Origin: Dehalococcoidia bacterium
Lineage (GTDB): Bacteria; Chloroflexota; Dehalococcoidia; UBA2979
Reading direction: 5' to 3'
Assembly: GCA_965262725.1 (NCBI GenBank)
Contig: OZ253555.1
Coordinates: 928,001-992,000, forward strand
Length of the DNA stretch: 64,000 bases
Positions 1 to 47,196 of this stretch are shown piece by piece. The position numbers and the translations under genes are program-made. How positions within the stretch are numbered: position 1 is the stretch's first letter; every line of letters starts with the position of its first letter. Under the pieces are notes generated by a model. The model was not told the origin of the DNA. It was given only the letters and a program-made list of their open reading frames with translations, and searched no databases.

Positions 1-1167
1 CGGTCCCGCCGCCGAGAAGACGAGCTGGAAGGGCATCGCGACGCCGCGCACGCCGCCGAGGTAGCGGCGTCCGAAGAAGGCCGCCCAGATCACCTCCTGC
101 ATCGGCACGAATCCGGCGATCCCGGATCCGAAGGTGAGAAAGCCGAGCGCGACGAAGGGCGTGCTGCCGGCGCGGGCCGCCGGGATGACGATCGTCATCG
201 CTGCGGCGGTGGCGAGGAAGGCTGCGGCCGCGAGCAGCCGCGGCTGGATGCGCTCCGCGAGCAGGCCCCAGAACGGTCGGGTCAGAAGACCCGGCAGCGC
301 GAAGAGCGAGAGCATCGCCGCCGCGGTCGTGCGGCTGAATCCCGAGTCGGTGAGGAAGGGGATCGTCTGCGCGCCGAGCGCCGTAAAGGAGAGCCCCCCG
401 AAGCCGAATGCCGCGATCAGGAGCCAGAGCGAGGTACTCCGGATCGCCTCGCGGCGCGTCAGGGAAGTGTCATAGTCGAGCCGGGCGAACTCGGCCTCGG
501 CGGCGCTGCCCGGATCCTCCGCGCCGCGTCCGTCGGGAAGCAGCCCGTGGTCCTCCGGCTGCCTCCGCATGACCAGTGCCGCCGAGACCATGAGGATGAG
601 CGTTGCGACCGCGAGCACACGCCAGCCGGTGCGCCAGTCGTAGCCGTCGACGACGGGCGTCAGCAAGGTCGGGGTGAGGACGCCCGCGAGCGAGAGCCCG
701 GTGACCGCGATGCCGAGCGCGCGCCCGCGATAGCGGACGAACCACTTCGAGAGCACGACGTTGGCGACAAGCAGGCCGCCCAGGCCGATCCCGATCGCCT
801 GCACGACGCCGCGCAGCACGATCCACTGCCAGAGCTCGGTGACCTCGGCGGTGGCGAGAAGCGCGGCCGACGTGACGAGCCCCCCAACGATCATCAGCAT
901 GCGCCCGCCGTGGCGATCGATGAGCCCGCCGATGAGCGCGCCGACGATCGCCATCACGAACTGCGAGATCGTGAGCGCGATGATGAATTCAGTGCGCGAC
1001 CAGCCGAGGTCGTCGGTCATCGGCACGAAGAAGACGCCGGTGGAGTAGCCCTGCAGGCAGGCGGACATGCCGTTGGTGGCGAGTGCCGCGCCGACGATGT
1101 ACCAGCCGTAGTAGATGCGCCCGCGGGGCCGAGCCGGCGCCGCGCGGACCAGGGGATCGCCGCTCAC
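1..1167 (-). CDS. MFS transporter (3' end runs off the window)
   Basis: Not in the ORF track because it is truncated. Manual translation from GTG 1167 (GTGA overlap with the upstream stop) gives MSGDPLV...RIYYGWYIVGAALATNGMSACLQGYSTGVFFVPMTDDLGWSRTEF...GGLIDRHGGR, which includes MFS motif A and many hydrophobic helices. Confidence 0.88.
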   Translation of the reverse strand, partial: MSGDPLVRAAPARPRGRIYYGWYIVGAALATNGMSACLQGYSTGVFFVPMTDDLGWSRTEFIIALTISQFVMAIVGALIGGLIDRHGGRMLMIVGGLVTSAALLATAEVTELWQWIVLRGVVQAIGIGLGGLLVANVVLSKWFVRYRGRALGIAVTGLSLAGVLTPTLLTPVVDGYDWRTGWRVLAVATLILMVSAALVMRRQPEDHGLLPDGRGAEDPGSAAEAEFARLDYDTSLTRREAIRSTSLWLLIAAFGFGGLSFTALGAQTIPFLTDSGFSRTTAAAMLSLFALPGLLTRPFWGLLAERIQPRLLAAAAFLATAAAMTIVIPAARAGSTPFVALGFLTFGSGIAGFVPMQEVIWAAFFGRRYLGGVRGVAMPFQLVFSAAGP

Positions 1168-2516
1168 GGGGCGGGCGGCGCCCCCGCGGCGGGCCGCCTC
1201 GGCGCGCCGGGGGGACGGGGCGGCGTCGCGAGCAGGAAGAAGCCCGAGCCGGCGGCAGCCAGCGCCGCGAGCAGCAGGAAGGCGCCGCGGTAGCTGCCAA
1301 AGCCGTCGACGAAGGCACCGACCACGAGCGGACCGATGGTCATCCCGGCCATCGCGAAGATGTTCGCGAACCCCATGATCACGCCGAAGGCGCGCCGACC
1401 GAAGTAGTCCGCGCGGATCGACCCCATCAGCGGGCCGCGCACCCCCCACGCGAAACCGTGGATCACGGCGAACGCGAGCACCATCCAGAGCGCGTTCGCC
1501 GTCGCCAGGGTTGCCAGCGCCACCGCGTGCGCCACCATGCAGAGGGCCGCCGTGAGCCTCTTGTTGACGCGGTCGCCGATGGCGCCTCCGATCAGCATGC
1601 CCGCGGCCTGCAGCAGTGTGAGCAGCAGCACGACCTGGGAGGCGCCCTGTAGCGAGTAGCCGAGCTCCTCCGTGGCATAGGGGACGAAGTGCACCAAAAG
1701 CGCCGCGACGAACATGAGCGCGGTGCCGTGGCCCGCCGAGACGAGCCAGAAGGCTGGCGCGCGGAGCGCCTCGCCGACGGTGAAGTCGATGCCCCCCGCC
1801 GGCGAGGGCACCTCGCGCTCGGCGGCCTCCTCGGGGTCGATCCCGTCGGGATGCTCGCCGAGCTCGCCCGGGCGGTGACGCATCACGTGCACCATCGGCG
1901 CGCCGAGCGCGATCGAGAGCACGCCGGAGAGGAAGGCCGTCTCGCGCCAGCCCCAGCCCTCGAGAGCCAGCGCGACGACCGGCTGCAGGACGCCTCCAAA
2001 CGCGAAGCCCATGAAGGCGATCGCGATCGCGAGCGAACGCCGCCGCTCGAACCAGTGCACGAGCGGCACGAGGATCGAGAGAAATCCGCCCAGGGTCGCC
2101 CCGAGCGAGATGACCAGAAACGCTGCGTAGAAGCCCGCGATGCTGTTGATCTGGCTGAAGAGGATGAGCCCGGCGCCGAAGAGGAGCACGCCGACGTGCA
2201 TCACCGTCCTGGGCCCGAGTCTGTCGAGCAACCAACCCTGACCCGGCCCGGCGGCTCCCTCCACAACGCGCGCGATCGCGAAGCCACCGGCGAGCACCGT
2301 CTTGCTCCAGCCGAACTGCGCGGCGAGGAGCACGACGTAGGCACCGAAGGAGTGGAAGAAGAAGGCGCCCATCAGCGCCTCGATGCCCGCGCCGGCTCCG
2401 ACGATGCGCCAGCCGTAGAAGCGCCACGCCGCCCGGCGGGGACGCGGAGCACCGGGGCCGCGCGGCTCGCCGGCCGTCCCGGGAGCCGCTTCCCCCGTGT
2501 CCGTCATGGGAGGCAT
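1164..2516 (-). CDS. MFS transporter (OFA/MCT-like)
   Basis: FYGWRIV N-terminus, GWLLDRLGPR motif A, ADYFGRRAFG, about 12 hydrophobic segments. Start could be ATG 2507. Confidence 0.9.
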   Translation of the reverse strand: MPPMTDTGEAAPGTAGEPRGPGAPRPRRAAWRFYGWRIVGAGAGIEALMGAFFFHSFGAYVVLLAAQFGWSKTVLAGGFAIARVVEGAAGPGQGWLLDRLGPRTVMHVGVLLFGAGLILFSQINSIAGFYAAFLVISLGATLGGFLSILVPLVHWFERRRSLAIAIAFMGFAFGGVLQPVVALALEGWGWRETAFLSGVLSIALGAPMVHVMRHRPGELGEHPDGIDPEEAAEREVPSPAGGIDFTVGEALRAPAFWLVSAGHGTALMFVAALLVHFVPYATEELGYSLQGASQVVLLLTLLQAAGMLIGGAIGDRVNKRLTAALCMVAHAVALATLATANALWMVLAFAVIHGFAWGVRGPLMGSIRADYFGRRAFGVIMGFANIFAMAGMTIGPLVVGAFVDGFGSYRGAFLLLAALAAAGSGFFLLATPPRPPGAPRRPAAGAPPAP

Positions 2517-2629
2517 TGTAGATGGTGGGGTGGGAGCGCATCGGGGGCTGGCCCGCCCCGGGCGTCGCCACCACGCGGCCCCAAAACGCGATAAGCTAGA
2601 GACGGGTGCGAGGCGGTCGGAGGATGCGT

Positions 2630-3235
2630 GTGAGCGAAGGGACAGCCGCTCCGAGCGTGCTCGTCACCGACGAGGCGCTCGCGAAGCTCCAGGACGCAGC
2701 GCGGAGCTTCCCCGAGCCGATCGCGGGGATCCAGATCTCGCTGGTCGGTCGCGGGCCCGAGGGGTTCACGCACCGCCTGGCGCTCGTCGACGAGGGCGAG
2801 GAGCCCGCGGAGGACATCGCTGTCCCGCTCGACGACGGGCTCACGCTCTTCGTCGAGGCGGCCAACGTCGACTACCTCGACGGCGTGACGGTCCACTTCG
2901 ATCCGGCCGATCCGAGTTCCAACGGCTTCGTGTTCCACAATCCGAATCCGCTGTGGCGCGACGAGCTCGCGATGGAACTCCAGCAGCTCATCGACCAGAG
3001 CATCAACCCGGGGATCGCGGCGCACGGGGGCTATGTGACGCTGCTCGACTTCCGTGATCGCGTGGCCTACATCGAGATGGGCGGCGGGTGCCAGGGCTGC
3101 GGGCTCGCCGCCGTGACGCTGACGCAGGGCATCGAGGCCGCCGTGCGCGAGGCCCTTCCCGAAATCGAGCGCATCATCGACACCACCAACCATGAGGGCG
3201 GCGAGAACCCCTACTACGCCCCGCAGAAGAAGTGA
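2630..3235 (+). CDS. nfuA: NfuA-like Fe-S cluster carrier (degenerate A-type N-domain plus NifU C-domain)
   Basis: YLDGVTVHF..GFVFHNPN N-domain; INPGIAAHGG and MGGGCQGC (CxxC) NifU motif; DTTNHEGGENPYY C-terminus. GGAGG at 2619-2623 precedes GTG 2630. Confidence 0.88.
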   Translation: MSEGTAAPSVLVTDEALAKLQDAARSFPEPIAGIQISLVGRGPEGFTHRLALVDEGEEPAEDIAVPLDDGLTLFVEAANVDYLDGVTVHFDPADPSSNGFVFHNPNPLWRDELAMELQQLIDQSINPGIAAHGGYVTLLDFRDRVAYIEMGGGCQGCGLAAVTLTQGIEAAVREALPEIERIIDTTNHEGGENPYYAPQKK

Positions 3236-3245
3236 TGCGTCCGGC

Positions 3246-4826
3246 GTGACCGGGCGCCGCCTCGCCGGGGGTGAGTCGCCGCTCCCGCGGGGCCCGGGGA
3301 GGGCAGCCGACGCCCTGCTCGTCTCGACCTACGAACTCGGGCACCAGCCGCTGCTCCTGGCACAGGCGCAGGCGGCGCTCAGGCAGGCGGGCCACCGCGT
3401 GCGCTGCGTCGACCTCGCCGTCGAGGAGCCAGAGGCGCTGCTCGCCGGCGTCGTCGGCGCGGAGCTGGTGGCGGTTGCCGTCCCGATGCACACGGCGGCG
3501 CGCCTCGCCGTGGCGCTCGCGCCGCGGCTGCGCGAGGCGGCGCCGGCCGCGCACCTCTGCCTCTTCGGACTCTACGCAAGCGAGCTCGGGGAATCGTCTC
3601 CCCGTGTGGCCGCCTCCGGGTCGTCGCTGGCCTCCACCGCCGACTCGCTGGTCGGCGGCGAGTTTGAGCCCGGGCTCGTGGCGCTCGCGGATGCGATCGC
3701 AGCGCGCGCGCCGGGCGTCGCCGCCCGCTCCGTCGCGCCGCCGCCCGGGGGTGAGCCCCGCGGGCCCATCCCCGCGTTCCCGAGGCAGCGCTTCCTGCGG
3801 CCGGAGCGCTCCGGGCTCCCGCCGCTCGAGCACTACGCCCGCTGCGACACCGGCAACGGGCTCGTGCTCGCGGGCTACGTCGAGGCGAGCCGGGGCTGTG
3901 CACACCGGTGCACGCACTGCCCGATCACGCCCGTCTACGGAGGCAGGCTCCGGCTTGTCGACCGCGAAGTCGTGCTGCGCGACGCGGCTCAGCAGATCGA
4001 GGCCGGCGCGGGGCACATCACATTCGGCGATCCGGATTTCCTGAACGCGGTGCCGCACACGCTCGCGATCGTCGACGCGCTGGCGCGGCGCCACCCCGGC
4101 GTCACGTTCGACGCCACGGCGAAGGTGGAGCATCTCCTCGCGCACCGGGAGCTCTTGCCCAGGCTGCGGGATGCCGGGCTGCTCTTCGTCACCTCGGCCT
4201 TCGAGTCGACGAGCGATCACGTTCTGGCGGAGCTGGAGAAGGCTCATGTCGCTGCCGATCTGGAGCGGGTCGTGGAGGTGACGCGTCGGCACGGCGTGGC
4301 GCTCCGCCCGACCTGGGTGGCGTTCACGCCGTGGGGCGGGCTGGGAGACTACCTCGCGATGCTCGACTTCGTGGAGCGTCACGAACTCCACGGCGCTGCT
4401 CCCCCGGTGCAGTACGCGCTCCGGTTGCTGCTCCCGCCGGGCTCGCCCCTTGTGTCGCGGATCGCCTCCGCTGGCCTCCTCGACGGCTTCGATCAGGCGA
4501 GACTGACGTACCGCTGGCGTCACCCCGACCCGCGCATGGAGAGGCTAGCGGCCGACGCCGGGGCCATCGCGAGCGCGGACGCGGCCTCCCCGGCCGCGTG
4601 CGGCGCCCACGCCGGCCGGCGCGCCGCCCTGACCACCGCCGCCGTCCTCGGGGCTCTCCGCGACGCGGCCGCCAGGGCGGCCGGTGTGCCGCCTCCGGGC
4701 CCCTCCGCCGCGGACGCGTCGCCGCCCTTTGTCCCCGGCCTGACCGAGGCCTGGTTCTGCTGAGCGGAGCCCACCGCGGGGCAGTTCGCCTCGCTTCCGG
4801 ACGCCGCCGTTTCGCCCATCGTCTGA
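3246..4826 (+). CDS. CUAEP/CCAEP-tail radical SAM selenoprotein (TGA 4761-4763 read as Sec)
   Basis: N-terminal LLVSTYELGHQP (B12-binding-like domain) and a CAHRCTHC CxxxCxxC motif. The track stops at TEAWFC-TGA, but the frame continues AEPTAGQFASLPDAAVSPIV to TGA 4824-4826, giving the C-U-A-E-P tail. A SECIS-like hairpin follows the TGA. Confidence 0.88.
4764..4799 (+). promoter_or_regulatory. Putative bacterial SECIS element
   Basis: Lower stem CGGAG(4765-69)/TTCCG(4795-99), bulge CCCACC, upper stem GCGGGGC(4776-82)/GCCTCGC(4788-94), loop AGTTC with G at position 2, 19 nt after the UGA. Folded by eye. Confidence 0.7.
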
Positions 4827-4851
4827 GCCGACCCAGCGCCCCTAGCGCTCA

Positions 4852-6159
4852 TCACCCCGCGAGGCGCTCCACCTCGATACGGAGAGCGGCGTGCGCGGCG
4901 CGCAGCGCCGCCTCCACCTCGGCCGGGGTCCCGGCGCGGGCGAAGAGGAAGCCCAGGTACTCGCCGCCCTCGGGCAAGGGAACAAGCCGGCGGCCCGGCG
5001 TCACGGTGATCGTGAGACCGGTGATGCCGGCGATCCCCTCCGCCTCGGCGGTACCCGAGACCGATCGCAGGACGCCGGCGCCGGGTATCGGGATCATCAT
5101 CACGCCCGCCGCGGCGCTCTCGCGAGAGTAGCCCGCGGTGGCGGCGGGGCCGCCGACCGCGTCGCGCAGCAACAGTTCCTCAAGCGAGACGCCCGCGCTC
5201 TCGCCCCCCGACCGGGGTGGAGCGAAGCGGAGGGAGCGTGCGCAGAGTCCGCCGATGGAGCGAGCGGCGAGGTCGACCGGCCACGCGCCCGCGTCGTTCA
5301 GGCGCAGCTCGGCGTGGAGCGGCCCCTGCCGGAGTCCGAGCGCGCGTGCGGCGCGCTCAGCGGTTTTGGTCGCGAGCGTCCGCTCGTGGGCGGGCAGCCG
5401 CGACGGCGTGACGTAGATCGTCTCCTCGAAGTAGGGGCCCTCGAGCGGGTCGGGCTTGTCGAAGATCGCCAGCACCCGCAGCCGCGGCTCGCCCTCGGCG
5501 CCTTCCTCGAGCAATCCCTCGATCGCGATCTCGCGCCCTGGAATGTAGCCCTCGACGATCAGGTCGGCGCTACCGCCGCACTCGCGTAAGACCTCCGGGC
5601 GGCGCAGCAGGCCTCGCACCCGTTCCACGGCCACGGTGAAGGCGTCGGGGCCGTCGGCGCGGATCACCCCGCGGCTGCCGGAGAGGGAGAGCGGCTTCAC
5701 CACGCAGGGGTACTCCACCTGCCGGGCGAGGGTCGCGGGATCGTCGTCTTCGCGCAGCCGCCACCAGGGGGGCGAGGGGACGCCGGCCTGAGCAAGTCGC
5801 TCCCTCAGGAGCGACTTGTCGCGCGTCGTGGCGACGGCGGCGACCGGGTTCCCGGGGAGACCGAGGCGCTCTGCGGCGTGCGCGGCGATCAGCGTTCCGC
5901 CGTCGTCGACGGCGACGACCCGATCGAGATCACGTCCCGGCTCGGCGTCGGTGAAGGCGGCTATCTGCCGCGCCGCGCGCTCCGGCTCCGAGAAGTCGAG
6001 CGTCAGGAAGCGCCCGGGGAGGAGCGGTGCGAGCGCGCTCTCCGCGTCGCTCCCGACGACGAGATCGATATCGAGCTCCTTCCCGAGGCGCGACGCCGCT
6101 CCCACGAAGTCGCTGGCGCGGTAGGTCTCGCCGGGGAGCAGCAGCAGCATGCGGGTCAT
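4852..6159 (-). CDS. ATP-grasp domain-containing ligase
   Basis: RDKSLLRERL, YPCVVKPLSLSGSRGVIRAD, IVEGYIPGREIAIEG, GPLHAELR, DLAARSIGG. ATG 6159 has a GGAGG RBS. Confidence 0.88.
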   Translation of the reverse strand: MTRMLLLLPGETYRASDFVGAASRLGKELDIDLVVGSDAESALAPLLPGRFLTLDFSEPERAARQIAAFTDAEPGRDLDRVVAVDDGGTLIAAHAAERLGLPGNPVAAVATTRDKSLLRERLAQAGVPSPPWWRLREDDDPATLARQVEYPCVVKPLSLSGSRGVIRADGPDAFTVAVERVRGLLRRPEVLRECGGSADLIVEGYIPGREIAIEGLLEEGAEGEPRLRVLAIFDKPDPLEGPYFEETIYVTPSRLPAHERTLATKTAERAARALGLRQGPLHAELRLNDAGAWPVDLAARSIGGLCARSLRFAPPRSGGESAGVSLEELLLRDAVGGPAATAGYSRESAAAGVMMIPIPGAGVLRSVSGTAEAEGIAGITGLTITVTPGRRLVPLPEGGEYLGFLFARAGTPAEVEAALRAAHAALRIEVERLAG

Positions 6160-6278
6160 GGTTCCTCCCGGAGGCGATCGTACGCCGCCTGAGTGCGCTA
6201 CCCTCCCGGGCGACCCGCCGCGAGTGCCGACGGACGGGTGGAGAGGCGCGAGCGGGCGGGCGCGGAGAGGGTGGGCAG

Positions 6279-7499
6279 ATGGATTGGGCCGACAGCGCCA
6301 GCGAAGCGACGTTCCGCTCCGAGGTGCGCGCGCTGATCGGGACCAGGCTGCCCGCCTACTACCGCGACCGCTCCATCCAGCTGCGTCGCCGCACACATCG
6401 CCCGTGGCAGGGTGACCGCATCGCTCCGGAGCAGGAGCGACGCGAGGCGGCGCAGGCGTGGCGCGAGGCGCTCGTCGAGCGCGGGTGGGTGGCGCCGCAC
6501 TGGCCGACGGAGTACGGCGGGGCGGGGCTCACCGTCCGCGAGCAGTTCATCCTCAACCAGGAGATGGCGGTCGCCGACGCGCCGGACATCGGCGGGCTCG
6601 GCACGCAGATGATCGGCCCCACGCTGATCGTTCACGGCTCCGCCGAGCAGAAGCGCCGGCATCTGCCGGAGGTGCTCGCCGGACGCGTGATCTGGGGGCA
6701 GGGCTACTCCGAGCCAGGCGCGGGCTCCGACCTCGCCTCGCTCCAGACGCGCGCCGTCCGCGATGGCGACGAGTACGTGGTGAACGGCCAGAAGATCTGG
6801 ACGACACTCGCGCACCAGGCCGACTGGCTCTTCGTCCTGACGCGAACCGACATCGACGCGCCCAAGCACCGGGGCATCTCGCTGCTCTTGATGGATCGCG
6901 GCACGTCCGGCATCTCGATCCGGCCGCTTGTGAACATGGCGAACGAGCACATCTTCAACGAGGTCTTCTTCGAGGGCGTGCGCGTTCCGGCCGAGAACGT
7001 GGTGGGCGAGGAAAACAGGGGCTGGTACGTTGCGATGACCCTGCTGGACTTCGAGCGCTCCAACGTGGCGGGCGGCGTGAGGGCCCAGGCGCAGATCCGC
7101 CTCATCCTCGCCGAGGCCAGCGAGCGGGAGGCGGCCTCCGGCCGAAGTCTCGCTCCCTCCGTGCGTGCGCTGCTCGCCGATCGCTACATCGACACCGAGG
7201 TCGTGCAGCAGCTCTCGGCGCGCATCGCCTCGATCCAGGCGGGAGGCCTCGTACCGAACTACGAGGCCTCGATGGGGAAGCTCTTCGCCTCGGAGCTCTC
7301 GCAGAAGATCGCGGTCGCGATGGCGAAGGCACTGGGTCTCTTCGGGCAGCTCACCGGCGCCGACGAGCCGCGCACGCCGCTCTATGGCTTCGTCGGCTAC
7401 CAGTACATGGAGTCCGTCTCGAGCACGATCCGCGGAGGAACCTCCGAGATCCAGCGCAACGTCATAGCCACCCGCGGCCTCGGCTTGCCGCGCTCGTAG
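6279..7499 (+). CDS. Acyl-CoA dehydrogenase family protein
   Basis: WPTEYGGAG, QGYSEPGAGSDLASL, NGQKIWT, FNEVFF, TIRGGTSEIQRNVIA. True start MDWADS at 6279. Confidence 0.93.
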   Translation: MDWADSASEATFRSEVRALIGTRLPAYYRDRSIQLRRRTHRPWQGDRIAPEQERREAAQAWREALVERGWVAPHWPTEYGGAGLTVREQFILNQEMAVADAPDIGGLGTQMIGPTLIVHGSAEQKRRHLPEVLAGRVIWGQGYSEPGAGSDLASLQTRAVRDGDEYVVNGQKIWTTLAHQADWLFVLTRTDIDAPKHRGISLLLMDRGTSGISIRPLVNMANEHIFNEVFFEGVRVPAENVVGEENRGWYVAMTLLDFERSNVAGGVRAQAQIRLILAEASEREAASGRSLAPSVRALLADRYIDTEVVQQLSARIASIQAGGLVPNYEASMGKLFASELSQKIAVAMAKALGLFGQLTGADEPRTPLYGFVGYQYMESVSSTIRGGTSEIQRNVIATRGLGLPRS

Positions 7500-7550
7500 G
7501 CGCCCGCGGCACCCCTCCGCGCGCGCGTCTTTCTCCGCGCCGCGCGCCTC

Positions 7551-8282
7551 TCAGGGAGCCGGCGGCGCGGGAGAGCGCAGCTGGCGCCACGCAGCCCCGG
7601 CGATCGCCCCGGCGCCGACGAGGGCGAGCGCGGCCTCCGCGACGCCCCAGCCGCTCCAGCCGGTCGCGGAGAGCGGAGTGAGCGCGAGTCGGAGCAGCGC
7701 GACGCCGCCCACGAGCGCGAGCGCGGCGACTCCCGGCCGCCAGTGCCGCCAGCTGAGCAAGAGCGCACCCATCAGGGCGAGCAGCAGCACTCCCTCGATC
7801 GCGGGCGTGGCGAGCCTGGTGTCGGCGAGCCCTGACATCGCGAAGCCCAGCGGCGGCTCCGCGCGCGCGCCCCAGCAGGCGTCGCGCACCGGGCAGCTGA
7901 GGTCGTAGGCGGCGACCGCGAGCGCGAGTCCCGTAGCCCAAGCCGTCGCGAGGGGCCAGCACGCGGCTCTCCCCGCCCCCCGCGCCGCCCACGCGAGCAC
8001 GGCGAGCGTCGCGGCCGCCCCCCACAGCGGCTCGATCCCGCCCTGGATACGGATCGCAACCATGGGGTCGAGGAGCGTCTCCGGCGACTCGGCGACCAGG
8101 TAGCCGAGACGGCCGACCACGACGAAGACGATCACGGCGTCCGAGTAAAGGGAGCCGACGGGCGCGCGGGGGAGCGCGATCAGGGCCGCGACGCGCGGCG
8201 CCGCGAGCCAGAGCAGGAGTACGACGACGACGAGCGAGACGAACTCGCCGCGCGGGTATACGAAGTCGAGCACCTCGCTCAC
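7551..8282 (-). CDS. Membrane protein distantly resembling prolipoprotein diacylglyceryl transferase (Lgt-like, degenerate)
   Basis: Multiple TM helices. VVGRLGYL...IRIQGG and SCPVRDACWG..PPLG..TRLATPAIEG echo the Lgt GRxxY, GG, GCxxxGCCYG and RHPTQLYE motifs. Translationally coupled to the upstream TlpA gene. Confidence 0.55.
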   Translation of the reverse strand: MSEVLDFVYPRGEFVSLVVVVLLLWLAAPRVAALIALPRAPVGSLYSDAVIVFVVVGRLGYLVAESPETLLDPMVAIRIQGGIEPLWGAAATLAVLAWAARGAGRAACWPLATAWATGLALAVAAYDLSCPVRDACWGARAEPPLGFAMSGLADTRLATPAIEGVLLLALMGALLLSWRHWRPGVAALALVGGVALLRLALTPLSATGWSGWGVAEAALALVGAGAIAGAAWRQLRSPAPPAP

Positions 8283-8884
8283 GGCACCGCCGCGGCGCTG
8301 ACCAGCGCCTCCTCGATGAGGACCGCGAGCCGGGACTCCGAGATTGGGCCGACGTGCGTCGCGGTGAGGCGTCCCGCCGGGTCGATCACGAAGGTCATCG
8401 GCAGGCCTCGGACGCCGTAGGCGCGGGCGAACGAGCCGTCGTCGACGGCCTGCGCGTAGAGGAGACTAAAGCGCTCGGCGAAGTCGCGCGCGGAACTCTC
8501 GGAGTCGTTGCGCACGACGCCGAGGAAGGTGACGCGCCCCGGATCGGCCGCCTCGTGGGCGCGCCTGAGCGCCGGCGCCTCCTCGCGGCACGGCGGGCAC
8601 CAGGAGGCCCAGACGTTGATCACGGTCGCGCGACCCGCGAAGTCCCGAGAGCTCACGCCGGTAGCGTCGCCGCCGTCGAGCAGCGGCAGGGCGAACGCGG
8701 GGGCCGCCTGGCCGGAGAGGGGGCCGCGCGGTGCTCCCGCCTGAGCGCCCTTCCCCGCCAGCACCGCGAGCACGATCGCGGCCGCTCCCAGCAGCAGCCA
8801 GGCCAGCCGCCTCGCGCGCTCCGCATCGCCGGGCGGAGCCGGCGTGCTGCTCTCACCGTCCGCGGGGTTCTTTGACTCACTCAC
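8279..8884 (-). CDS. Membrane-anchored TlpA/ResA-like thiol-disulfide oxidoreductase
   Basis: N-terminal TM, APAFALPLLDG, INVWASWCPPCREEAP, YGVRGLPMTFVID. Start uncertain (GTG 8884 or 8944). Confidence 0.9.
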   Translation of the reverse strand: MSESKNPADGESSTPAPPGDAERARRLAWLLLGAAAIVLAVLAGKGAQAGAPRGPLSGQAAPAFALPLLDGGDATGVSSRDFAGRATVINVWASWCPPCREEAPALRRAHEAADPGRVTFLGVVRNDSESSARDFAERFSLLYAQAVDDGSFARAYGVRGLPMTFVIDPAGRLTATHVGPISESRLAVLIEEALVSAAAVP

Positions 8885-8919
8885 GGGCTCGACCGCGCAC
8901 TCTGCCGGGCCGCCCGGCC

Positions 8920-9312
8920 CTAGATGCCGAGCCGGCGCCACCACCCGGGCGCGCGCTCGCCCTGGGGGTGGTCATCCCCTGCGTCGCCGCCGAACGGAAT
9001 GCCGTGCCGGCGCAGGAAGGGACCGATCTGTCCGGGGTTGGGCTCCGTGAGCATCGTGCCCCGGTCGACGGCGCGCGGGCCGCGGTTCCCCAGTTGCTCC
9101 GGCTCCTTGATCGGATCGATGCTGTCGTCGGGTGCGATCACGAGCGTGGGCACCGACTCGTGCCCCGTCCAGCCGACGACCTTCGCGTAGGCTTCCTCGT
9201 CGCGCTCGATATCCAGCTCGACGTAGGAGAGGGGGTGCTCGTCGACCCACCGGCGCCAGCGGTGCATGTCGGGGCAGAACGAGGATCGTGCGTAGACCAC
9301 GAGTCGCGCCAT
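8920..9312 (-). CDS. Glutaredoxin-like protein (single-Cys CPDM site)
   Basis: MARLVVYARSSFCPDM...YVELDIERDEEA...WTGHESVPTLVI shows the Grx fold with the cis-Pro VPT motif. ATG 9312 has GGAGGGGAG upstream. Confidence 0.75.
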   Translation of the reverse strand: MARLVVYARSSFCPDMHRWRRWVDEHPLSYVELDIERDEEAYAKVVGWTGHESVPTLVIAPDDSIDPIKEPEQLGNRGPRAVDRGTMLTEPNPGQIGPFLRRHGIPFGGDAGDDHPQGERAPGWWRRLGI

Positions 9313-9396
9313 CGGCTCCCCTCCGTCCAGCCGCCGACCGCAGCGTAGCGACTCGCACTGATCTACGCGCGGTGTCCCGGTCGCCGCCCCGCGCCG

Positions 9397-9423
9397 TACG
9401 ATTGAGTCCCGGAGGAAGGGAGG
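9397..9423 (+). promoter_or_regulatory. Putative -10 element (TACGAT) and strong RBS of the small selenoprotein gene
   Basis: TACGAT at 9397-9402; the same hexamer lies upstream of the ATP-grasp, amidohydrolase 17663 and Lhr genes. GGAGGAAGGGAGG at 9411-9423 ends 5 nt before GTG 9429. Confidence 0.5.
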
Positions 9424-9428
9424 TCGCC

Positions 9429-9737
9429 GTGGAGTTGCAGCTGACGGAGGATGCGGTGGGGCTGCTCCGGAGGCGCGGCGGCCGGATGGCACTCGACTTC
9501 ATACCTCCTATCGGCTGAACGGGCCGGCTCGAGGTGCCGGTCGACACCTACCTCAAGGGCAAGAACCTCTCCCGCTACGAGACGGTGGCTCTCGGCGATC
9601 TGCGCATTCACGTCGCGCTGGCGCTCGGCCGATGGGCGGAGCGGGTCGTCGTCGACGCCGAGCGCGTGCTGCTCCTCTGGCGGCGCTTCGACGTGCGCGT
9701 GGCGCATCGCCACCAGCCGACCTGAACTCACGGATGA
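9429..9737 (+). CDS. Small putative selenoprotein with two in-frame TGA codons (Sec30, Sec99); HesB/A-type-like N-terminus and His-rich tail
   Basis: Track ORFs 9132..9518 and 9534..9725 share one frame, separated by TGA 9516-9518. Joined product: MELQLTEDAVGLLRRRGGRMALDFIPPIG-U-TGRLEVPVDTYLKGKNLSRYETVALGDLRIHVALALGRWAERVVVDAERVLLLWRRFDVRVAHRHQPT-U-THG. Strong RBS, and hairpins 12-13 nt after each TGA. If the second TGA is a stop, the gene ends at 9725. Confidence 0.72.
9519..9549 (+). promoter_or_regulatory. Putative SECIS for TGA 9516
   Basis: Stem AGGTG(9532-36)/CACCT(9545-49), a C-A mismatch, a C-G pair, and apical loop GGTC starting 20 nt after the UGA. An alternative stem GGCCGGC/GCCGGTC is possible. 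Confidence 0.55.
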
Positions 9738-9759
9738 GCCCCCGCCGGCGGCGGGGGGC
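9738..9759 (+). promoter_or_regulatory. Hairpin: putative SECIS for TGA 9723 (alternatively a terminator or stabiliser)
   Basis: CCCCCGCC(9739-46)/GGCGGGGG(9750-57) with a GGC loop starting 21 nt after the UGA; no U-tract follows. Confidence 0.5.
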
Positions 9760-9873
9760 GCGGGCAACCGTTGACACGCCGGCGCTGAGCCCTCTACTAC
9801 ATGGCAGGTGGGCGGACGGCGTGCCCGTGCCGTCCCGCTCCTAGCGAGCCGAGCCCACCTGAGGAGGCCCCCC

Positions 9874-10797
9874 ATGACTGTCGAGTCCCTGTCCGTCATC
9901 CCCGCAACCCACAAGCTGGCGGATGGGATCGACGGCGACGCGTTCTACGACCTACACCCCGGACCGCTCGGCAGCTACGAGATGACCATCACCGAGGCCG
10001 ACGTGGAGCGGTGGTGCGACATCCACGAGGACACGGTCCCGTGGCGCGCCGAGCCGGGCGCCGATCCCAGCGCGCCGCCGTACATCGGCTACTACGCCTG
10101 CATGAACGCGCTCGCCCCGATCCGCTACTTCGGCAACACCGGCCGCCCCAACTATGGACCCGGGGGGCTCGCGCGCTACTGGGCGGAGTTCCACGCTCCG
10201 CTCCCGGTGGGTGTCCCGCTCCAGGTCACCGGCCGCGTCACCGACAAGTACACGCGCCGGGGCATCGGCTACACGGACTGGGAGGTCGACATCACACACG
10301 AGGGCCGGCTGCTGCAGCGCACCGGCCGCGCCTGGGCGACTAGCCTCCCGCCCGAGGAGCAGGAGAAGTGGCCGGAGCGCGAGGGACGTCCGCGCCCGCC
10401 GGAGGTGCCGGAGGGCGCCGACGTGCTGGGCCCGCTCGTCTACGTCACGTCGCAGCAGCACGTCGACGATCTCGAGGGGCCCGGAGAGCACAACAACCAC
10501 ACCGACGTGGAGACGGCCCTCGCCCAGGGGCTGCGCGGGCCGCGCGCGCAGGGCGAGCTCTCGTTCGCGCTGGTGGCGCGCCTGATGGCGCGGCACTTCG
10601 GCACGAGATTCGCGAACGGCGGATCACTCGACATCCGACTCATAGGCGAGGTGCAGGCGGGCGACGCGCAGACGGCCCACGCCGCGGTCGCCGAGAGGCG
10701 CGACGACGGGAGCGAACTCTGCCGCGTCTGGGCTACGAACCAGGAGGGCCAGCTCGTTACCGTCGGGACGGCGACGCACGCGGGGACGTCCGCGTGA
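9874..10797 (+). CDS. Double hot-dog fold / MaoC-like dehydratase
   Basis: EFHAPLPVGVPLQVTGRVTDKYTRRG (hot-dog 1); NNHTDVETALAQGLRGPRAQG and LDIRLIGEVQAGD (MaoC-like domain 2). GAGGAGG RBS before ATG 9874. Confidence 0.75.
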   Translation: MTVESLSVIPATHKLADGIDGDAFYDLHPGPLGSYEMTITEADVERWCDIHEDTVPWRAEPGADPSAPPYIGYYACMNALAPIRYFGNTGRPNYGPGGLARYWAEFHAPLPVGVPLQVTGRVTDKYTRRGIGYTDWEVDITHEGRLLQRTGRAWATSLPPEEQEKWPEREGRPRPPEVPEGADVLGPLVYVTSQQHVDDLEGPGEHNNHTDVETALAQGLRGPRAQGELSFALVARLMARHFGTRFANGGSLDIRLIGEVQAGDAQTAHAAVAERRDDGSELCRVWATNQEGQLVTVGTATHAGTSA

Positions 10798-11699
10798 GCG
10801 CCCTGGACCTCCCCGAGATCCCGGCGACTCGCCACCTCGACGAGGGGGTCGAGGGGGATCCGTTCCGCGATATGCACGTGGGGTCGCTCGGCCGCTATCA
10901 GGTCGTGGTGCGCCCGGAGGATGTCGAGCGCTGGGCGCGCATCCACGAGGAGCCGTTTCCGTGGAGCGCTGGCGAGGGCTCAGAACCCGCCGCTCCGCCC
11001 TCGATCCTCTACTACGCCTCGATGAACATTCTCGCGCCGATCCGCTATTTCCGGCCGCGCAACTCCCCGGGGGGCGCGGCCCTCGCGCGCTACTGGGCGG
11101 AGTTCCATGCGCCGCTTCCTGTCGGCGTCTCGATCGAGGTGAGCGGGGAGGTGACGGACAAGTACACGCGCCGGGGCCGGGGCTTTGTCGACTGGCACAT
11201 CGAAGCGTGGGCAGGGGGTCGACTGTTGCAGCGCAACGGGAAGAACTGGTTCTCCGGGATCCCGGAGGACGAGGCCGCGAAATGGCCCGAGCGCCCCGGC
11301 GGAGAACGCCCGCCCGAGGCGCCCGAGGGAGTCGAGCGCTTCGGCCCGATCACCTACCCCGTGACACAGGACCACATGGCCGACTTCGAGGGAGGCGACC
11401 GTAACACGCACTCGAGCGCCGACCTCGCGCGCGAGCAGGGTGAGACGCGCACGACGGCGCAGGGAGCGCTCAGCTTCGGGCTCCTGAGCCGGCTCGCGAC
11501 GGAGCGCTTCGGCGAGTCGTTCACGGCCGGCGGCTCGCTCGACGTGCGCTTCATCCAGCGCGTCCACGGTGGCGACGTGCTCACGGCCCAGGGGGCACTG
11601 CTCGGCCTGGACGGAGAGGGCCGCCACCGGGCCCGCGTGTGGGCGCAGAACCAGCAGGGCGCGCTGACCGCGGTCGGCGTCGCGACCGCGCGCGCCTGA
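10794..11699 (+). CDS. Double hot-dog fold / MaoC-like dehydratase, tandem paralog
   Basis: GTGA overlap with the previous gene. Shares LAPIRYF, LARYWAEFHAPLPVGV and VTDKYTRRG blocks; also DRNTHSS..AREQG and LDVRFIQRVHGGD. Confidence 0.75.
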   Translation: MSALDLPEIPATRHLDEGVEGDPFRDMHVGSLGRYQVVVRPEDVERWARIHEEPFPWSAGEGSEPAAPPSILYYASMNILAPIRYFRPRNSPGGAALARYWAEFHAPLPVGVSIEVSGEVTDKYTRRGRGFVDWHIEAWAGGRLLQRNGKNWFSGIPEDEAAKWPERPGGERPPEAPEGVERFGPITYPVTQDHMADFEGGDRNTHSSADLAREQGETRTTAQGALSFGLLSRLATERFGESFTAGGSLDVRFIQRVHGGDVLTAQGALLGLDGEGRHRARVWAQNQQGALTAVGVATARA

Positions 11700-11737: not shown

Positions 11738-12970
11738 CTAACCTCGAGGCAGTCCGAGTCCCCGCGAGGCGATGATGTTGCGCTGGATCTCGTGCGTCCC
11801 GCCCGCGATCGAGGCCGAGATCGTGTGCACCGACCTCTGCGTGTAGCGCGCGTTCAGGGGCGCGTAGTCCTCGGCCGGATCCCAGATCTGGGAGTAGAGG
11901 CCAAAGACCTTCATCCCCGTCTGCTGCATCTGCTGGAACAGTGTCCCGCCGAAGACCTTCGACATCGACGCCTCGTAGTTCGGTATCTGCCCGGCGTGCT
12001 GCATCGAGATGATGCGCATCGCGAACTGCGAGAGCACCTCCGTCTCGATGTAGCGGGTCGTCAGGTGCTCACGCGTGGAGTCGAGCTCGTTCGTGCGCGA
12101 GCAGAGCCGCCCGTCCTCCGTGTTGAGGAACTTGATGAGTTCGTCGAGATCCTTGCGCTGGTCGACGGCTCCGGTGATGTTCGAGCGCTCGTAGTCGAGG
12201 AGCGTCATCGCCACGTACCAGCCGCGGTTCTCCTCGCCGACGCGCTGCGAGATCGGGACGCGCACGTGCTCGTAGAAGGACTCGTTGGTCGCGTGCTCCC
12301 AGCCGCCGGAGATGAGTGGCCGCACCTCGACGCCGGGTGTGTCCTTGCGCAGCAGCAGGAAGGAGATCCCGCGGTGCTTCGGCGCGTCGGGATCGGTGCG
12401 GACCAGCATGAAGAACCAGTTCGCCTTGTGCCCCATCGAGGTCCAGATCTTCTGGCCGTTGATGACGTAGTCGTCGCCATCGCGAACGGCGCGCGTCTGG
12501 AGCGAGGCGAGGTCGGAGCCCGCCCCGGGCTCCGAGTATCCCTGCGCCCACGTGATCTCGCCGGAGAGTGTCTTCGGCAGGAACTCCCGCCGCTGCTCCT
12601 CGGTGCCGTGGTGGATCAGCGTGGGGCCGAGCATGGAGGCGCCCGGCCCGCCGACCACCGGCGCTCCGTTCAACGCAAGCTGCTGCTTGAAGATGAACTG
12701 CTCCATCGCGGTGAGACCGGCCCCGCCGTACTCGGGCGGCCAGTGCGGTGCGGACCAGCCGTGCTCCGCCAGCGCCTCGGCCCACTCGCGCGCCGCCGCC
12801 TGCGCGTCGGGCTCCCCCAGCATGAGGTCGTACTGCCAGTCGCTGTTGTGCACACCCGGGCCCTTGCCGCCGCTCCGGCGCTCCCGGTAGAGCTCGGGAA
12901 GGCGCTCCTCGATGAAGTCGGCGACCTGCGTGCGGAATGCCGTCTGCTCTTCGGTGTCGGCCCAGTCCAT
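11738..12970 (-). CDS. Acyl-CoA dehydrogenase family protein
   Basis: WPPEYGGAG, QGYSEPGAGSDLASL, NGQKIWT, IAGGTHEIQRNIIA. Confidence 0.93.
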   Translation of the reverse strand: MDWADTEEQTAFRTQVADFIEERLPELYRERRSGGKGPGVHNSDWQYDLMLGEPDAQAAAREWAEALAEHGWSAPHWPPEYGGAGLTAMEQFIFKQQLALNGAPVVGGPGASMLGPTLIHHGTEEQRREFLPKTLSGEITWAQGYSEPGAGSDLASLQTRAVRDGDDYVINGQKIWTSMGHKANWFFMLVRTDPDAPKHRGISFLLLRKDTPGVEVRPLISGGWEHATNESFYEHVRVPISQRVGEENRGWYVAMTLLDYERSNITGAVDQRKDLDELIKFLNTEDGRLCSRTNELDSTREHLTTRYIETEVLSQFAMRIISMQHAGQIPNYEASMSKVFGGTLFQQMQQTGMKVFGLYSQIWDPAEDYAPLNARYTQRSVHTISASIAGGTHEIQRNIIASRGLGLPRG

Positions 12971-12993
12971 GTCGCGCCCCCTTCCCCGCGCCG

Positions 12994-13002
12994 ACTATAG
13001 CA
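12994..13002 (-). promoter_or_regulatory. Putative extended -10 promoter (TGcTATAGT) of the acyl-CoA dehydrogenase
   Basis: Near-consensus TGn-TATAGT about 24 nt upstream of ATG 12970 in a divergent intergenic region. Confidence 0.45.
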
Positions 13003-13106
13003 GTCGCCTCGCGCGTTTGGCGGGGCGTGAAGCGGGCCCCGGGAGCGGTATCATGACTCGCCCTGCTCGACGCCGGACGGGCATCGCCGGAGCAAAGAGG
13101 ACCGAC

Positions 13107-14066
13107 GTGAGCGAGAACACCGGCAGACCGGATCGCGCGCCGCGCGTGACCGTGCTGGCGGGCGGCGTGGGCGGCGCGCGGCTCGCGGACGGCGTCGCGC
13201 GCGCGGCGCCCGACGCCGAGCTCACGGTCGTCGTCAACGTCGGCGACGACTTCGAGTGGCAGGGCCTTCGCGTCTCACCGGATCTGGACACCGTGCTCTA
13301 TACGCTCGCGGGTCGCGAGGGGGAGCAGGGATGGGGGCTTGCGGGCGACAGCACCGTCGTGCTGGAGGCGCTTCGCGCGCTTGGCGGCGATGCGTGGTTC
13401 CAGATCGGAGACCACGACCTCGCGACGCACCTCCGCCGCACCGCGCTGCTCCTTGCCGGCCGTCCGCTCTCGGAGGCGACGGCGGAGCTCGCCTCGGCAC
13501 TGGGCGTGGGTGCCCGCCTCCTTCCCGTCACTGACGACCTGCACCCGACCGTGATCGCAACCGACGCGGGCGAGCTCGCCTTCCAGGAGTATTTCGTGCA
13601 GCGCCGCCAGCGAGACGACGTGCGGGGGGTCCGATTCCCCGGCGCCGAGGGCGCGCGGCCCGCCCCCGGCGTGCTTGAGGCCATCGCGGAGGCAGACCTG
13701 CTCCTGCTGGCCCCCTCCAATCCCTTCGTGTCGATAGCGCCGCTCCTGGCGGTTCCCGGCGTGCGCGCGGCCATTGAAGCGGCTGAGGCGCCGCGCCTCG
13801 CCGTCAGCCCCATCGTGGGCGGCGCGGCGGTGAAGGGGCCCGCAGCCGCAATGTTGCGCTCGATGGGGCACGAGGTGTCGGCGCTCGGCGTTGCCCGGCT
13901 GCTCGTCGGGCTCGCCGACGTCTTCGTGCTGGACGCGGTGGACGCCGAGCTCGCCCCGGCGGTGCACGCGCTGGGGTTCGAGCCGCTCGTCACGGGCACG
14001 ATGATGACGGACCGGTCGCGCCGCGCCGCGCTCGCGGGCGTGTTGATCGGGCGGTTGCGCCCGTGA
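13107..14066 (+). CDS. cofD: 2-phospho-L-lactate transferase (F420 biosynthesis)
   Basis: [71 protein letters not shown]. Confidence 0.95.
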
Positions 14067-14737
14067 GCGTTCCCCTCGCGAGCCGGACCGTGGTGCTCGT
14101 GCCGGTGAAGCCGCTCTCGGAGGCGAAGTCGCGCCTCGCCTCGGCCCTGCCGATCGAGGCCCGGCAGTCGCTCGTCCGGGCGATGCTGGCCGACGTGCTC
14201 GCCGCGGTGCGCGCCGCCCACGCGGGCCCGCTGATCGTGCTCTCCCCCGACGACGCCTACGACGACTTGATCGCTCGCGCCGGCGCGAGGCACCTGCAGG
14301 ACGCGGGCACGGGCTACCGCGCCGCCGTGGAGCTGGGCCTCGCCTCGGACGAGGTGCGCCGGTCGGGATCGGCGCTCGTGATCCCCGCGGATCAGCCGCG
14401 CGCGCAGCCCCACGACATCGCGCGCGCCCTCGGGGCGCTCGCTCAGGCGGAGGTAGTGATGGTGGAGGCCGTCGACGGCGGGACGGGGGCGCTGGGCCTC
14501 TCGCCCCCCGATGCGATCCCACTCGCGTTCGGCGAGTGCTCCGCCGCCGCGCACCGCCGCCTCGCGCACCAGGACGGGCGGCGGTTCGTCGAGCTCGATT
14601 GCCCGTCGCTGGCGCACGATGTCGACCACTTCGAGGAGCTGCTCGATCCCACCGCCCCGCCGCCGGGTCCGGCCACCTCGCGTCTTCTGGGGGAAGAGCC
14701 GCTCGCTTCGGTCGTCGAATCGATCGCCGGGGCGTAG
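14063..14737 (+). CDS. cofC: 2-phospho-L-lactate/PEP guanylyltransferase (F420 biosynthesis)
   Basis: VPVKPLSEAKSRLA, AMLADVL, IPADQP, DGGTGAL, FGECSAAAH, DVD; GTGA-coupled to cofD. Confidence 0.9.
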   Translation: MSVPLASRTVVLVPVKPLSEAKSRLASALPIEARQSLVRAMLADVLAAVRAAHAGPLIVLSPDDAYDDLIARAGARHLQDAGTGYRAAVELGLASDEVRRSGSALVIPADQPRAQPHDIARALGALAQAEVVMVEAVDGGTGALGLSPPDAIPLAFGECSAAAHRRLAHQDGRRFVELDCPSLAHDVDHFEELLDPTAPPPGPATSRLLGEEPLASVVESIAGA

Positions 14738-31376: not shown

Positions 31377-31583
31377 CTACATCTCCATCTTCTTCTTGCC
31401 GGAGAGGTAGCCCTCCGCGTCCTCCTCGAACTCCAGACGGCACCCGGTGCCGCAGAAGTAGTACGTGACGCCGTTGTGCTGCGTGGAGCCGCCCGGCGCG
31501 TTCCGCGTGTCGACCTCCATGCCGCACACCGGGTCGATGGCGGTGCGATTCCCGCGTATGCGACCCATCAGCCACGACACCAT
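31377..31583 (-). CDS. YHS domain protein (small metal-binding)
   Basis: AIDPVCGMEVD...HNGVTYYFCGTGCRLEF. Confidence 0.88.
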   Translation of the reverse strand: MVSWLMGRIRGNRTAIDPVCGMEVDTRNAPGGSTQHNGVTYYFCGTGCRLEFEEDAEGYLSGKKKMEM

Positions 31584-31690
31584 CTGCGCCTCCCCTCGTC
31601 GATTCGCGGACAGGCACACCGTACAGTATTCGAGTGGCGTGAGTGGGCCGGACTGGACAGCGTCGAACAGCGAACCACGGGAGGTCTAGC

Positions 31691-44183: not shown

Positions 44184-44272
44184 AGGCTCCAGTCCCTAGC
44201 CTACACGCCTGGGGCCGTGCAATCGTGGCCCCGGCACACCGGGTGCCGGGTACCCCACCGGAGGAGGATGGG

Positions 44273-46527: not shown

Positions 46528-47183
46528 TCGCGGCCGGAGAGCCCCCGGGCGGCGTCGGCGTCGGCGATCACCTCGATCCGCCCGGCGCGGATGCGCCCGG
46601 CCGGAAGATCCTCGCCGGCGAGCCAGCGCCGGAGCGGCTCGCGCTTGCGGGCGCCGGCGACGAGGAAGAGCGCCACGCGCGCCGCCGCGAGCGCGGGCGG
46701 CGTCAGCGTCAGACGCGCGTGATCGGGCCGCTCCACGCGCGCGACGAGCCGGTCCCGCTCGGCGACGGCGGGATCGCCGGGGAAGAGCGACGCGGTGTGT
46801 CCGTCCTCGCCGAGGCCGAGGAGGGCGACGTCGAAGGCGATCGGTCGCCCGGCACCGAAGACGGAGGCAAGCGTCGCCTCGTAGGCTGCCGCGTCGCAGC
46901 GTGCGCCGTCCATGGCGTGCACGCGTGCCGGGACGCGGTCGAGCAGCGCGCGGCGTGCCATCCCCTCGTTGGAATCGGGGTGGTGGCGCGGCACGCAGCG
47001 CTCGTCTGAGAAGAAGACGTCGACTTCCGCCCAGTCGAGGTCGTCCACCGTGAGCGCCTCGTAGAGGGCGCGCGGCGTCGAGCCGCCAGCGAGCGCCAGG
47101 CGACGGGGACGGAGCGCCCGCAGCCGCTCGCGCGCTGCGGAGGCGAGCTCGCCGGCGGGGACGACGCTCAGATCAGCCCGCAC
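46524..47183 (-). CDS. pgl: 6-phosphogluconolactonase
   Basis: LAGGSTP, FFSDERCVP..HPDSN, LGLGEDGHTASLFP, RLTLT. Confidence 0.93.
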   Translation of the reverse strand: MRADLSVVPAGELASAARERLRALRPRRLALAGGSTPRALYEALTVDDLDWAEVDVFFSDERCVPRHHPDSNEGMARRALLDRVPARVHAMDGARCDAAAYEATLASVFGAGRPIAFDVALLGLGEDGHTASLFPGDPAVAERDRLVARVERPDHARLTLTPPALAAARVALFLVAGARKREPLRRWLAGEDLPAGRIRAGRIEVIADADAARGLSGRD

Positions 47184-47196
47184 GGCACGCGCCCGA

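Follow-up and report, generated by a model that had tools for sequence, protein, structure and literature searches.

A radical SAM selenoprotein of the CUAEP-tail family in a Dehalococcoidia bacterium recurs beside an ATP-grasp ligase and beside NfuA or YggX

The stretch of 64,000 nucleotides studied here, termed the window in the following, comes from contig OZ253555.1 of a Dehalococcoidia bacterium (assembly GCA_965262725.1, positions 928,001 to 992,000). At its beginning, in a region of about 72% G+C, lie two genes for transporters of the major facilitator superfamily (MFS), a gene for an NfuA-like iron-sulfur (Fe-S) carrier, a gene for a radical S-adenosylmethionine (SAM) protein with an in-frame TGA codon, and a gene for an ATP-grasp enzyme. 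An earlier sequence-only reading had combined them into a candidate biosynthetic module around a selenocysteine (Sec)-containing enzyme, and all genes, gaps and the in-frame TGA that it placed were found in the sequence. We show that the radical SAM gene has a conserved association with one family of ATP-grasp ligases and an either/or association with two helper proteins, NfuA or YggX.

By sequence comparison the radical SAM protein is a member of NF040546, a family that is named ("CUAEP/CCAEP-tail radical SAM (seleno)protein") and uncharacterised; score, CX3CX2C motif and C-U-A-E-P tail all agree on this. The protein scores 525.3 bits against a cutoff of 500 and aligns with the model end to end (residues 24-515 on positions 2-467 of 468). 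Its CX3CX2C motif is CAHRCTHC, with C218, C222 and C225 invariant in an alignment of database proteins (alignment A1), and its tail, WFC-U-AEPT, fits the C-[U/C]-A-E-P tail of the family. The second-best NCBIfam model is that of ArsL, NF040542, with 269.3 bits over residues 24-435. NF040546-like proteins are numerous, 4965 of 8000 candidates scored having E<=1e-10. A homologue with a natural Cys-Cys pair, L057, gave an AlphaFold model of high confidence (predicted local distance difference test score 90.4, predicted template modeling score 0.90), in which a B12-binding-like N-domain is joined to a radical SAM core. The confidence drops along the tail, from 83 to 57 in the WYCC segment and then to 45, and the tail end is modeled as disordered. 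The closest structural matches to this model are AprD4 (E=1e-18, template modeling score 0.69), TsrM, OxsB and MgmA. One relative, L025 from a metagenome-assembled genome, has a radical SAM open reading frame (ORF; 7818-9368) that lacks the conserved N-terminal LLVSTYELGHQP and begins with unrelated sequence, probably through an assembly frameshift.

The frame of the radical SAM gene meets a TGA (4761-4763) directly after ...PGLTEAWFC, and when this codon is read as Sec the frame runs on as AEPTAGQFASLPDAAVSPIV to a second TGA (4824-4826). Relatives were collected by scanning one genome per species, which gave at least 585 confirmed matches, and the best 80 loci (L001-L080) were used for all locus counts given here. 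The codon at the Sec position is TGA in 63 of the 80 and a Cys codon (TGC or TGT) in 16; in the last one the contig ends early. The peptide AEPTxxQ[L/F/V] behind this codon is kept in TGA-type and Cys-type genes alike, and the Cys forms sit at about ten separate places on the radical SAM tree. In alignment A1, 24 of 33 database proteins end at ...WFC, hence gene callers cut at the TGA, and the other nine read WFCCAEPT.

A selenocysteine insertion sequence (SECIS) is expected to form a hairpin just downstream of the UGA. At this place we find a stem of 7 bp that covaries, closes a loop containing GU and is confined to TGA-type genes. In the 64 TGA-type sequences the hairpin columns pair in 79% of cells compared to 65% in shuffled sequences, and 71 cells are changed on both sides where 29 are expected; none of 500 shuffles reached either value, and sliding the partner lowers the pairing to 41-59%. 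An uninterrupted stem of at least 5 bp is present in 49 of these 64 sequences (shuffles: mean 13.8, maximum 25), and the 15 weaker stems mostly contain one bulge. The 16 Cys-type genes pair in the same columns at 48% versus 47% when shuffled (217 of 500 shuffles reach this), without a covariation signal, and a single one has such a stem.

Some results weigh against the Sec decoding. The single-sequence fold of 4755-4830 is not more stable than shuffles (z=0.63), and the case for the hairpin is therefore built on covariation. An Rfam scan of positions 1-7000 returned no SECIS family, its sole match being a sub-threshold ASdes at 773-837, and neither sel genes nor a tRNA-Sec were found within the 64 kb. 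The alternation of TGA and Cys codons, the conserved tail peptide and the covarying hairpin of the TGA-type genes nevertheless bear out what had been read from the window, and decoding of the TGA as Sec is well supported by these comparisons. Short antisense ORFs (...VGSAQQ[NY]Q...) recur over this region, at 4740-4790 on the minus strand of the window and at the same place in L006, L027, L049, L051, L060, L061, L066 and L079. They were considered as genes and rejected as shadows of the conserved WFC-U-AEPT coding stretch.

The ATP-grasp protein contains the domains ATP-grasp_4 (PF13535, E=1.1e-27), LAL_C2 (PF18603, E=7.8e-16) and ATPgrasp_N (PF18130, E=3.9e-9). Among solved structures the L-amino acid ligase BL00235 comes closest (3VOT; E=8e-35, residues 28-403), with BacD next (E=2.4e-11). 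None of the curated NCBIfam cutoffs is reached, with 42 bits for BacD (cutoff 850) and 26 bits for DdaF (cutoff 840). These family searches were run with 4855-6093, which is 22 N-terminal residues short and leaves the family calls unaffected.

For the analysis of gene neighborhoods the ORFs of the 80 loci were clustered, profiles were built from recurrent clusters, and six-frame translations were searched with them. In 38 of the 80 loci a gene of the same ATP-grasp family lies no more than 4 kb from the radical SAM gene, less than 300 nt away in 25 of these 38, and the linked proteins are 44-81% identical to that of the window. Three arrangements occur: downstream on the same strand (24 loci), convergent as in the window (13) and upstream (one). 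The hosts are labeled as Chloroflexota/Dehalococcoidia, several Acidobacteriota orders, Planctomycetota, Myxococcota/Deltaproteobacteria, Nitrospiraceae, Gamma- and Alphaproteobacteria, Gemmatimonadota and Actinomycetota, about ten phyla overall. Both branches of the radical SAM tree at its deepest split contain linked genes (12 of 23 and 27 of 58 rows), and the pairwise distances of the radical SAM and ATP-grasp proteins are correlated (Mantel r=0.76, reached by 0 of 2000 permutations). Thus, one ATP-grasp ligase family is associated with the radical SAM gene in a conserved manner, and the linkage on which the sequence-only reading depended holds across many phyla.

Two observations weigh against a functional meaning of this linkage. 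The distance correlation could equally come from shared vertical descent, and among the 53 loci with at least 4 kb of flank on both sides the ATP-grasp gene is present in 31 and absent within reach in 22. The latter figure, together with the lack of conservation of the MFS genes, would also be expected if the neighbors were unrelated and adjacent by chance. We consider such a coincidence highly improbable, since one and the same family turns up in about ten phyla, in three orientations, and remains nearby despite inserted unrelated genes, namely one for an XhoI-type restriction enzyme in L078 and one for an enoyl-CoA hydratase in L007; rough reasoning expects a given family beside a random gene in well under one of 80 loci. 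In L078 the radical SAM gene is flanked by a DNA methylase-HNH gene and the XhoI-type restriction gene (5220-8010, 9558-11321). In L044 a phage-type integrase (6270-7571) directly follows the radical SAM gene, and the ATP-grasp gene is missing. The ATP-grasp gene of L075 contains ambiguous bases, and L075 was, like L025, set aside as a source of a model pair of the two proteins.

The NfuA-like protein of the window matches PF01106 (E=5.3e-19, residues 126-190) and has the CQGC motif. It aligns with positions 3-190 of the 190 of TIGR03341, which corresponds to an A-type-like N-domain and an Nfu C-domain, and scores 90.4 bits, below the NfuA equivalog cutoff of 269.35. NfuA is present in 21 of the 80 loci, and in 16 of the 21 its gene immediately precedes the radical SAM gene, with both on one strand. 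YggX (PF04362, Iron_traffic; NF003817, "oxidative damage protection protein", 128 bits with a cutoff of 74) is present in 24 loci, in the upstream slot in eight and just beyond the ATP-grasp gene in 15. The two never occur together, because 45 loci have either one and 21 and 24 add up to 45. The association of the radical SAM gene with NfuA or YggX is therefore of an either/or kind, and the exclusivity in one upstream slot looks like an in-place swap of iron or Fe-S helpers. Such a swap suggests that the cluster of the enzyme needs a dedicated iron or Fe-S supply. Hence, the NfuA linkage proposed from the window holds in a part of the family and is replaced by YggX in another. L057 has an A-type carrier in addition, and L013 a SufT-like protein.

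A further neighbor is DUF169 (PF02596), found in 12 loci (L013, L025, L026, L036, L038, L041, L055, L063, L072 and three more), adjacent in nine and between the radical SAM and ATP-grasp genes in L025, L041 and L063. Searches for an NCBIfam model or a solved relative of this protein found none. At least one of the four partners is present in 56 of the 80 loci and in 41 of the 53 with full flanks; the 12 full-flank loci that have none count against a strict unit.

The iron helpers can also be seen as a reflection of the product rather than of enzyme upkeep. The radical SAM and ATP-grasp pair would then make a small molecule for metal handling or redox balance and not an antimetabolite; candidates would be thiols or selenols of low molecular weight and metallophores of the nicotianamine/staphylopine type that are made from aminocarboxypropyl units. 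After the ligase, no neighbors are commoner than iron or Fe-S proteins (45 of 80 loci with NfuA or YggX, and the extra proteins of L057 and L013), DtxR-type repressors occur in L010 and L014, and five Chloroflexota loci have a heavy-metal P-type ATPase at the flank of the unit. The wide distribution of the family and its housekeeping context point in the same direction, as does DUF169, which according to the figure legend of a preprint is drawn, together with YHS, next to HgcA-like genes of Nitrospina (bioRxiv 10.1101/648329). However, NfuA and YggX are equally explicable as upkeep of an oxygen-sensitive cluster, and metallophore receptor or uptake genes do not recur among the locus clusters and the 99 of 292 other flanking ORFs that were scanned with Pfam. 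The predicted chemistry would moreover be the same as in the pathway that we propose below. We regard this explanation as unlikely.

The MFS genes behave differently from the other neighbors. Both proteins match PF07690 (E=1.9e-36 for MFS-A and 3.3e-38 for MFS-B), with SfMCT as best NCBIfam model of MFS-A (129.9 bits) and 149.6 bits against the same model for MFS-B (cutoff 320), and both remain under every NCBIfam equivalog cutoff. MFS-A is kept only in the close relative L001, which shares the layout of the window. MFS genes of the window type occur in five of the 80 loci, all from Dehalococcoidia/Chloroflexota; the other four form one subclade of Dehalococcoidia, where the radical SAM and ATP-grasp genes are separated by an MFS gene and a deacetylase-family gene. 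The MFS genes are a lineage-specific local addition and not part of the core. Of the module as first drawn, the Sec residue, the ATP-grasp ligase and, regionally, NfuA stand, while the transporters drop out as core components. In L027, L040, L049 and L058, and partly in L053 and L078, the order of genes is CocE/NonD hydrolase, NfuA, radical SAM, deacetylase-family, MFS, ATP-grasp and heavy-metal P-type ATPase. Acidimicrobiia loci have an ABC-2 exporter instead of MFS, Vicinamibacterales a sodium:solute symporter, and a Cys-type Dehalococcoidia clade is without any partner gene. A formyltransferase, DtxR, a methyltransferase and the SufT-like protein were tried as recurrent partners and set aside, each being found in two to five loci.

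Table 1. Genes and features at the start of the window
Feature	Position	Strand	Remarks
MFS-A	1..1167	minus	oxalate/formate-monocarboxylate-type transporter; GTG start 1167-1165; runs off window start
MFS-B	1164..2516	minus	same-type transporter, 450 aa; stop 1166-1164
NfuA-like Fe-S carrier	2606..3235	plus	degenerate A-type N-domain and Nfu C-domain with CQGC; stop TGA 3233-3235
CUAEP-tail radical SAM selenoprotein	3246..4826	plus	526 aa; GTG start 3246; Sec TGA 4761-4763; stop 4824-4826
SECIS-like hairpin	4776..4794	plus	stem 4776-4782 with 4788-4794; loop AGUUC; 13 nt past UGA
ATP-grasp, L-amino-acid-ligase type	4852..6159	minus	435 aa; ATG 6159-6157; convergent with radical SAM gene

The arrangement of these genes is compact (Table 1). 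The GTG start of MFS-A overlaps the stop of MFS-B (GTGA overlap), therefore the two divergent upstream genes are coupled, as had been noted before. For the NfuA-like gene we correct the start from GTG 2606 to the likelier GTG 2630, because a GGAGG (2619-2623) lies six nucleotides ahead of it; the gap to the divergent MFS-B gene is thus about 90-113 nt. A GGGAGG (6169-6164) precedes the ATG of the ATP-grasp gene, and this start agrees with the end position given in the earlier reading. A scan of 2400-6400 found no promoters or terminators. The spacings reported earlier were measured again and are correct, namely 10 nt between the NfuA-like stop and the radical SAM start and, after Sec read-through, 25 nt (4827-4851) between the convergent radical SAM and ATP-grasp stops.

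Pairs of radical SAM and ATP-grasp enzymes are generally known from pathways for ribosomally synthesized and post-translationally modified peptides, and the tail past the Cys-Sec pair is conserved. The two enzymes might therefore modify a peptide or protein, or the ATP-grasp enzyme might act on the tail of its own partner. The gaps of 10 and 25 nt in the window, however, are too short for a precursor gene, no ORF of 20-79 aa near the unit is conserved across phyla apart from the antisense shadows of the radical SAM tail, and the ATP-grasp protein carries the domain set of a ligase for free amino acids. The probability of such a peptide- or protein-modifying role appears low to us.

We propose tentatively, and with slightly less than even confidence, that the NfuA-like, radical SAM and ATP-grasp genes (2606-6159) are one functional unit in which chemistry like that of ArsL would be followed by a ligation. 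In this scheme the helper, NfuA or YggX, would keep the [4Fe-4S] cluster of the radical SAM enzyme loaded. The CUAEP enzyme would, like ArsL, cleave SAM and pass on its 3-amino-3-carboxypropyl group to a soft atom X that the Cys-Sec or Cys-Cys pair of the flexible C-terminus would hold. The product would be a 2-amino-4-X-butanoate amino acid, with X being As, Se, S or another element, and the ATP-grasp ligase would make a dipeptide by coupling it to a second amino acid. In the window the MFS pair may carry substrate or product. The need for a helper could stem from oxygen damage to the cluster; many hosts of the radical SAM unit belong to aerobic groups. Alternatively, it could stem from a chemistry that strains the unique iron, as this iron has been proposed to carry the aminocarboxypropyl group in an intermediate of ArsL (10.64898/2026.04.29.721666).

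Taken to its full extent, the scheme describes a two-enzyme pathway in about ten phyla, in which an ArsL-type selenoenzyme would put the aminocarboxypropyl group on Se, S, As or another metalloid and the ligase would make a dipeptide. In this complete form we judge it doubtful. If it is true, organo-chalcogen or organo-metalloid metabolites of a new class would come from an enzyme that has its cluster fed by a dedicated donor, NfuA or YggX. A C-metalloid amino acid product is something that we infer purely from the similarity to ArsL, and several findings argue against the proposal. The radical SAM protein does not reach the ArsL cutoff of 450 bits. Its tail offers two chalcogen ligands where ArsL has three Cys; the RCCLKC/CCxxC motif is not found in the window tail, where C-U-A-E-P stands without a third Cys. 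Since this site is unlike that of ArsL, X need not be arsenic and the substrate may differ much. The enzyme may also make an ordinary 5'-deoxyadenosyl radical. Fused long forms of the radical SAM protein were not found at E<=1e-30, which is weak evidence. Pfam domains of the scanned flanking ORFs are mixed, with no ars or sel theme, the 64 kb contain no arsM, arsR, arsC or acr3, and the radical SAM loci are embedded in housekeeping genes and do not resemble a biosynthetic-cluster-like island. Such surroundings and the wide spread of the family mean that a physiological metabolite fits at least as well as an antibiotic.

The lack of ars genes argues in particular against a strictly arsenic-dedicated enzyme, which would act on arsenite or methylarsenite (two thiolates suffice) and whose arsinothricin-like product would be turned into a peptide by the ligase. 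In its favor, the characterised model that comes closest is ArsL, trivalent organoarsenicals could be bound by a vicinal Cys-Cys or Cys-Sec pair, as work on ArsI and ArsR indicates, and the MFS proteins of the window weakly match the ArsK model for arsenite efflux (60.5 and 41.4 bits with a cutoff of 400). On the other side stand the ArsL score below cutoff, the missing CCxxC tail and the flanking ORFs, among which an ArsB/CitMHS-like fragment in L019 is the sole ars-like match. A strict role in arsenic metabolism thus seems quite unlikely. As a whole, the proposed unit, with As, Se, S or another element as X, is a good lead for experiments and not a demonstrated pathway.

To our knowledge, ArsL is so far the only radical SAM enzyme that has a canonical motif and transfers the aminocarboxypropyl group of SAM. 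Its closest sister family, described here, is much larger and mostly made of selenoproteins. The NF040546 family was called uncharacterised in a 2022 preprint (bioRxiv 10.1101/2022.07.06.499078). Because it was thus already named and mentioned, the term undescribed selenoenzyme that had been attached to the window is too strong; the conserved gene set, in turn, does appear undescribed. Full-text literature searches, whose coverage excludes subscription journals, found no description of it. The module of radical SAM selenoprotein, ATP-grasp enzyme of the L-amino acid ligase type, NfuA or YggX and sometimes DUF169 therefore appears to be new, and its recurrence in many phyla, as judged from gene content, suggests a small-molecule pathway that is so far undescribed. 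A concrete and testable frame is provided by the ligase as a conserved partner and by iron helpers that can replace each other. Homologues like L057, which have the full gene set and a natural Cys-Cys pair, need no Sec insertion in a host, and cultured carriers exist in Solirubrobacter taibaiensis (L038) and in Virgisporangium, Nonomuraea and Actinopolyspora (L037, L054, L056).

The rest of the window contains other gene groups. Beyond an acyl-CoA dehydrogenase gene (6279-7499), a run of three genes (7551-9492, minus strand) encodes a membrane protein without Pfam match (7551-8282), a redoxin of the TlpA/AhpC type with CPPC (8279-8944, overlapping the first gene by 4 nt and also found in L001) and a glutaredoxin-like protein (8920-9492). 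Further acyl-CoA dehydrogenase genes are located at 11738-12970 and 27744-28973, and the three, together with genes for enoyl-CoA hydratase, family III CoA-transferase and amidohydrolase at 19-29 kb, make up a CoA-dependent catabolic region that is unrelated to the radical SAM unit. Genes similar to cofD and cofC of coenzyme F420 synthesis are side by side at 12912-14737, and a CofD-domain protein is encoded near the radical SAM unit in L020. At 31377-33826 a small YHS-domain protein adjoins a DUF255 thioredoxin-like protein of 727 aa. A sugar-phosphate cluster (42873-55818) comprises a GlmU-like nucleotidyltransferase, trehalose-phosphate phosphatase and synthase, 6-phosphogluconolactonase, glucose-6-phosphate dehydrogenase, 6-phosphogluconate dehydrogenase, a fused transaldolase/phosphoglucose isomerase ORF and transketolase; its two longest ORFs overlap as called, and their starts are unsure.

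Among known systems ArsL is the closest point of reference for the radical SAM protein. ArsL, encoded in arsQML for arsinothricin, is built in the same way: its N-domain is B12-binding-like, its core is that of a radical SAM enzyme, and its C-terminal tail is flexible and rich in Cys. It cuts SAM at the C-gamma-S bond, releases 5'-methylthioadenosine and transfers the aminocarboxypropyl group to arsenite, which is held by three Cys of the tail; the product stays bound to the protein until it is oxidised (10.1101/2024.02.01.577332; 10.64898/2026.04.29.721666). The tails differ, with C-U or C-C followed by AEPT in the window family and CCxxC in ArsL as it is described there. The arsM/arsQ operon context of ArsL was not encountered in the window or the scanned flanking ORFs, and the partner is an ATP-grasp ligase whereas that of ArsL is a methyltransferase.

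The rare CU dipeptide is common to the window protein and to HgcA, SAO-locus proteins and MerT-type selenoproteins, which differ from it in fold and context. This dipeptide has been linked to heavy-metal handling, and the CUAEP family is listed as another CU example in the same 2022 preprint (bioRxiv 10.1101/2022.07.06.499078). The B12-binding-like N-domain architecture predicted in the L057 model is shared with AprD4, TsrM, OxsB and MgmA, at 13-19% identity, from which no function is transferable.

In its domain set the ATP-grasp protein resembles the L-amino acid ligases BL00235, BacD/YwfE of bacilysin and DdaF, yet it lies far under the equivalog cutoffs of BacD and DdaF. As in bacilysin, the ligase would couple an unusual amino acid. 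The NfuA-like protein has the two-domain build with CXXC of E. coli NfuA, but at 90 bits it stays below the equivalog cutoff of 269 and is not the equivalog. NfuA is an Fe-S donor to the radical SAM enzymes LipA and MiaB, and the position of the window protein beside a radical SAM client fits this known role.

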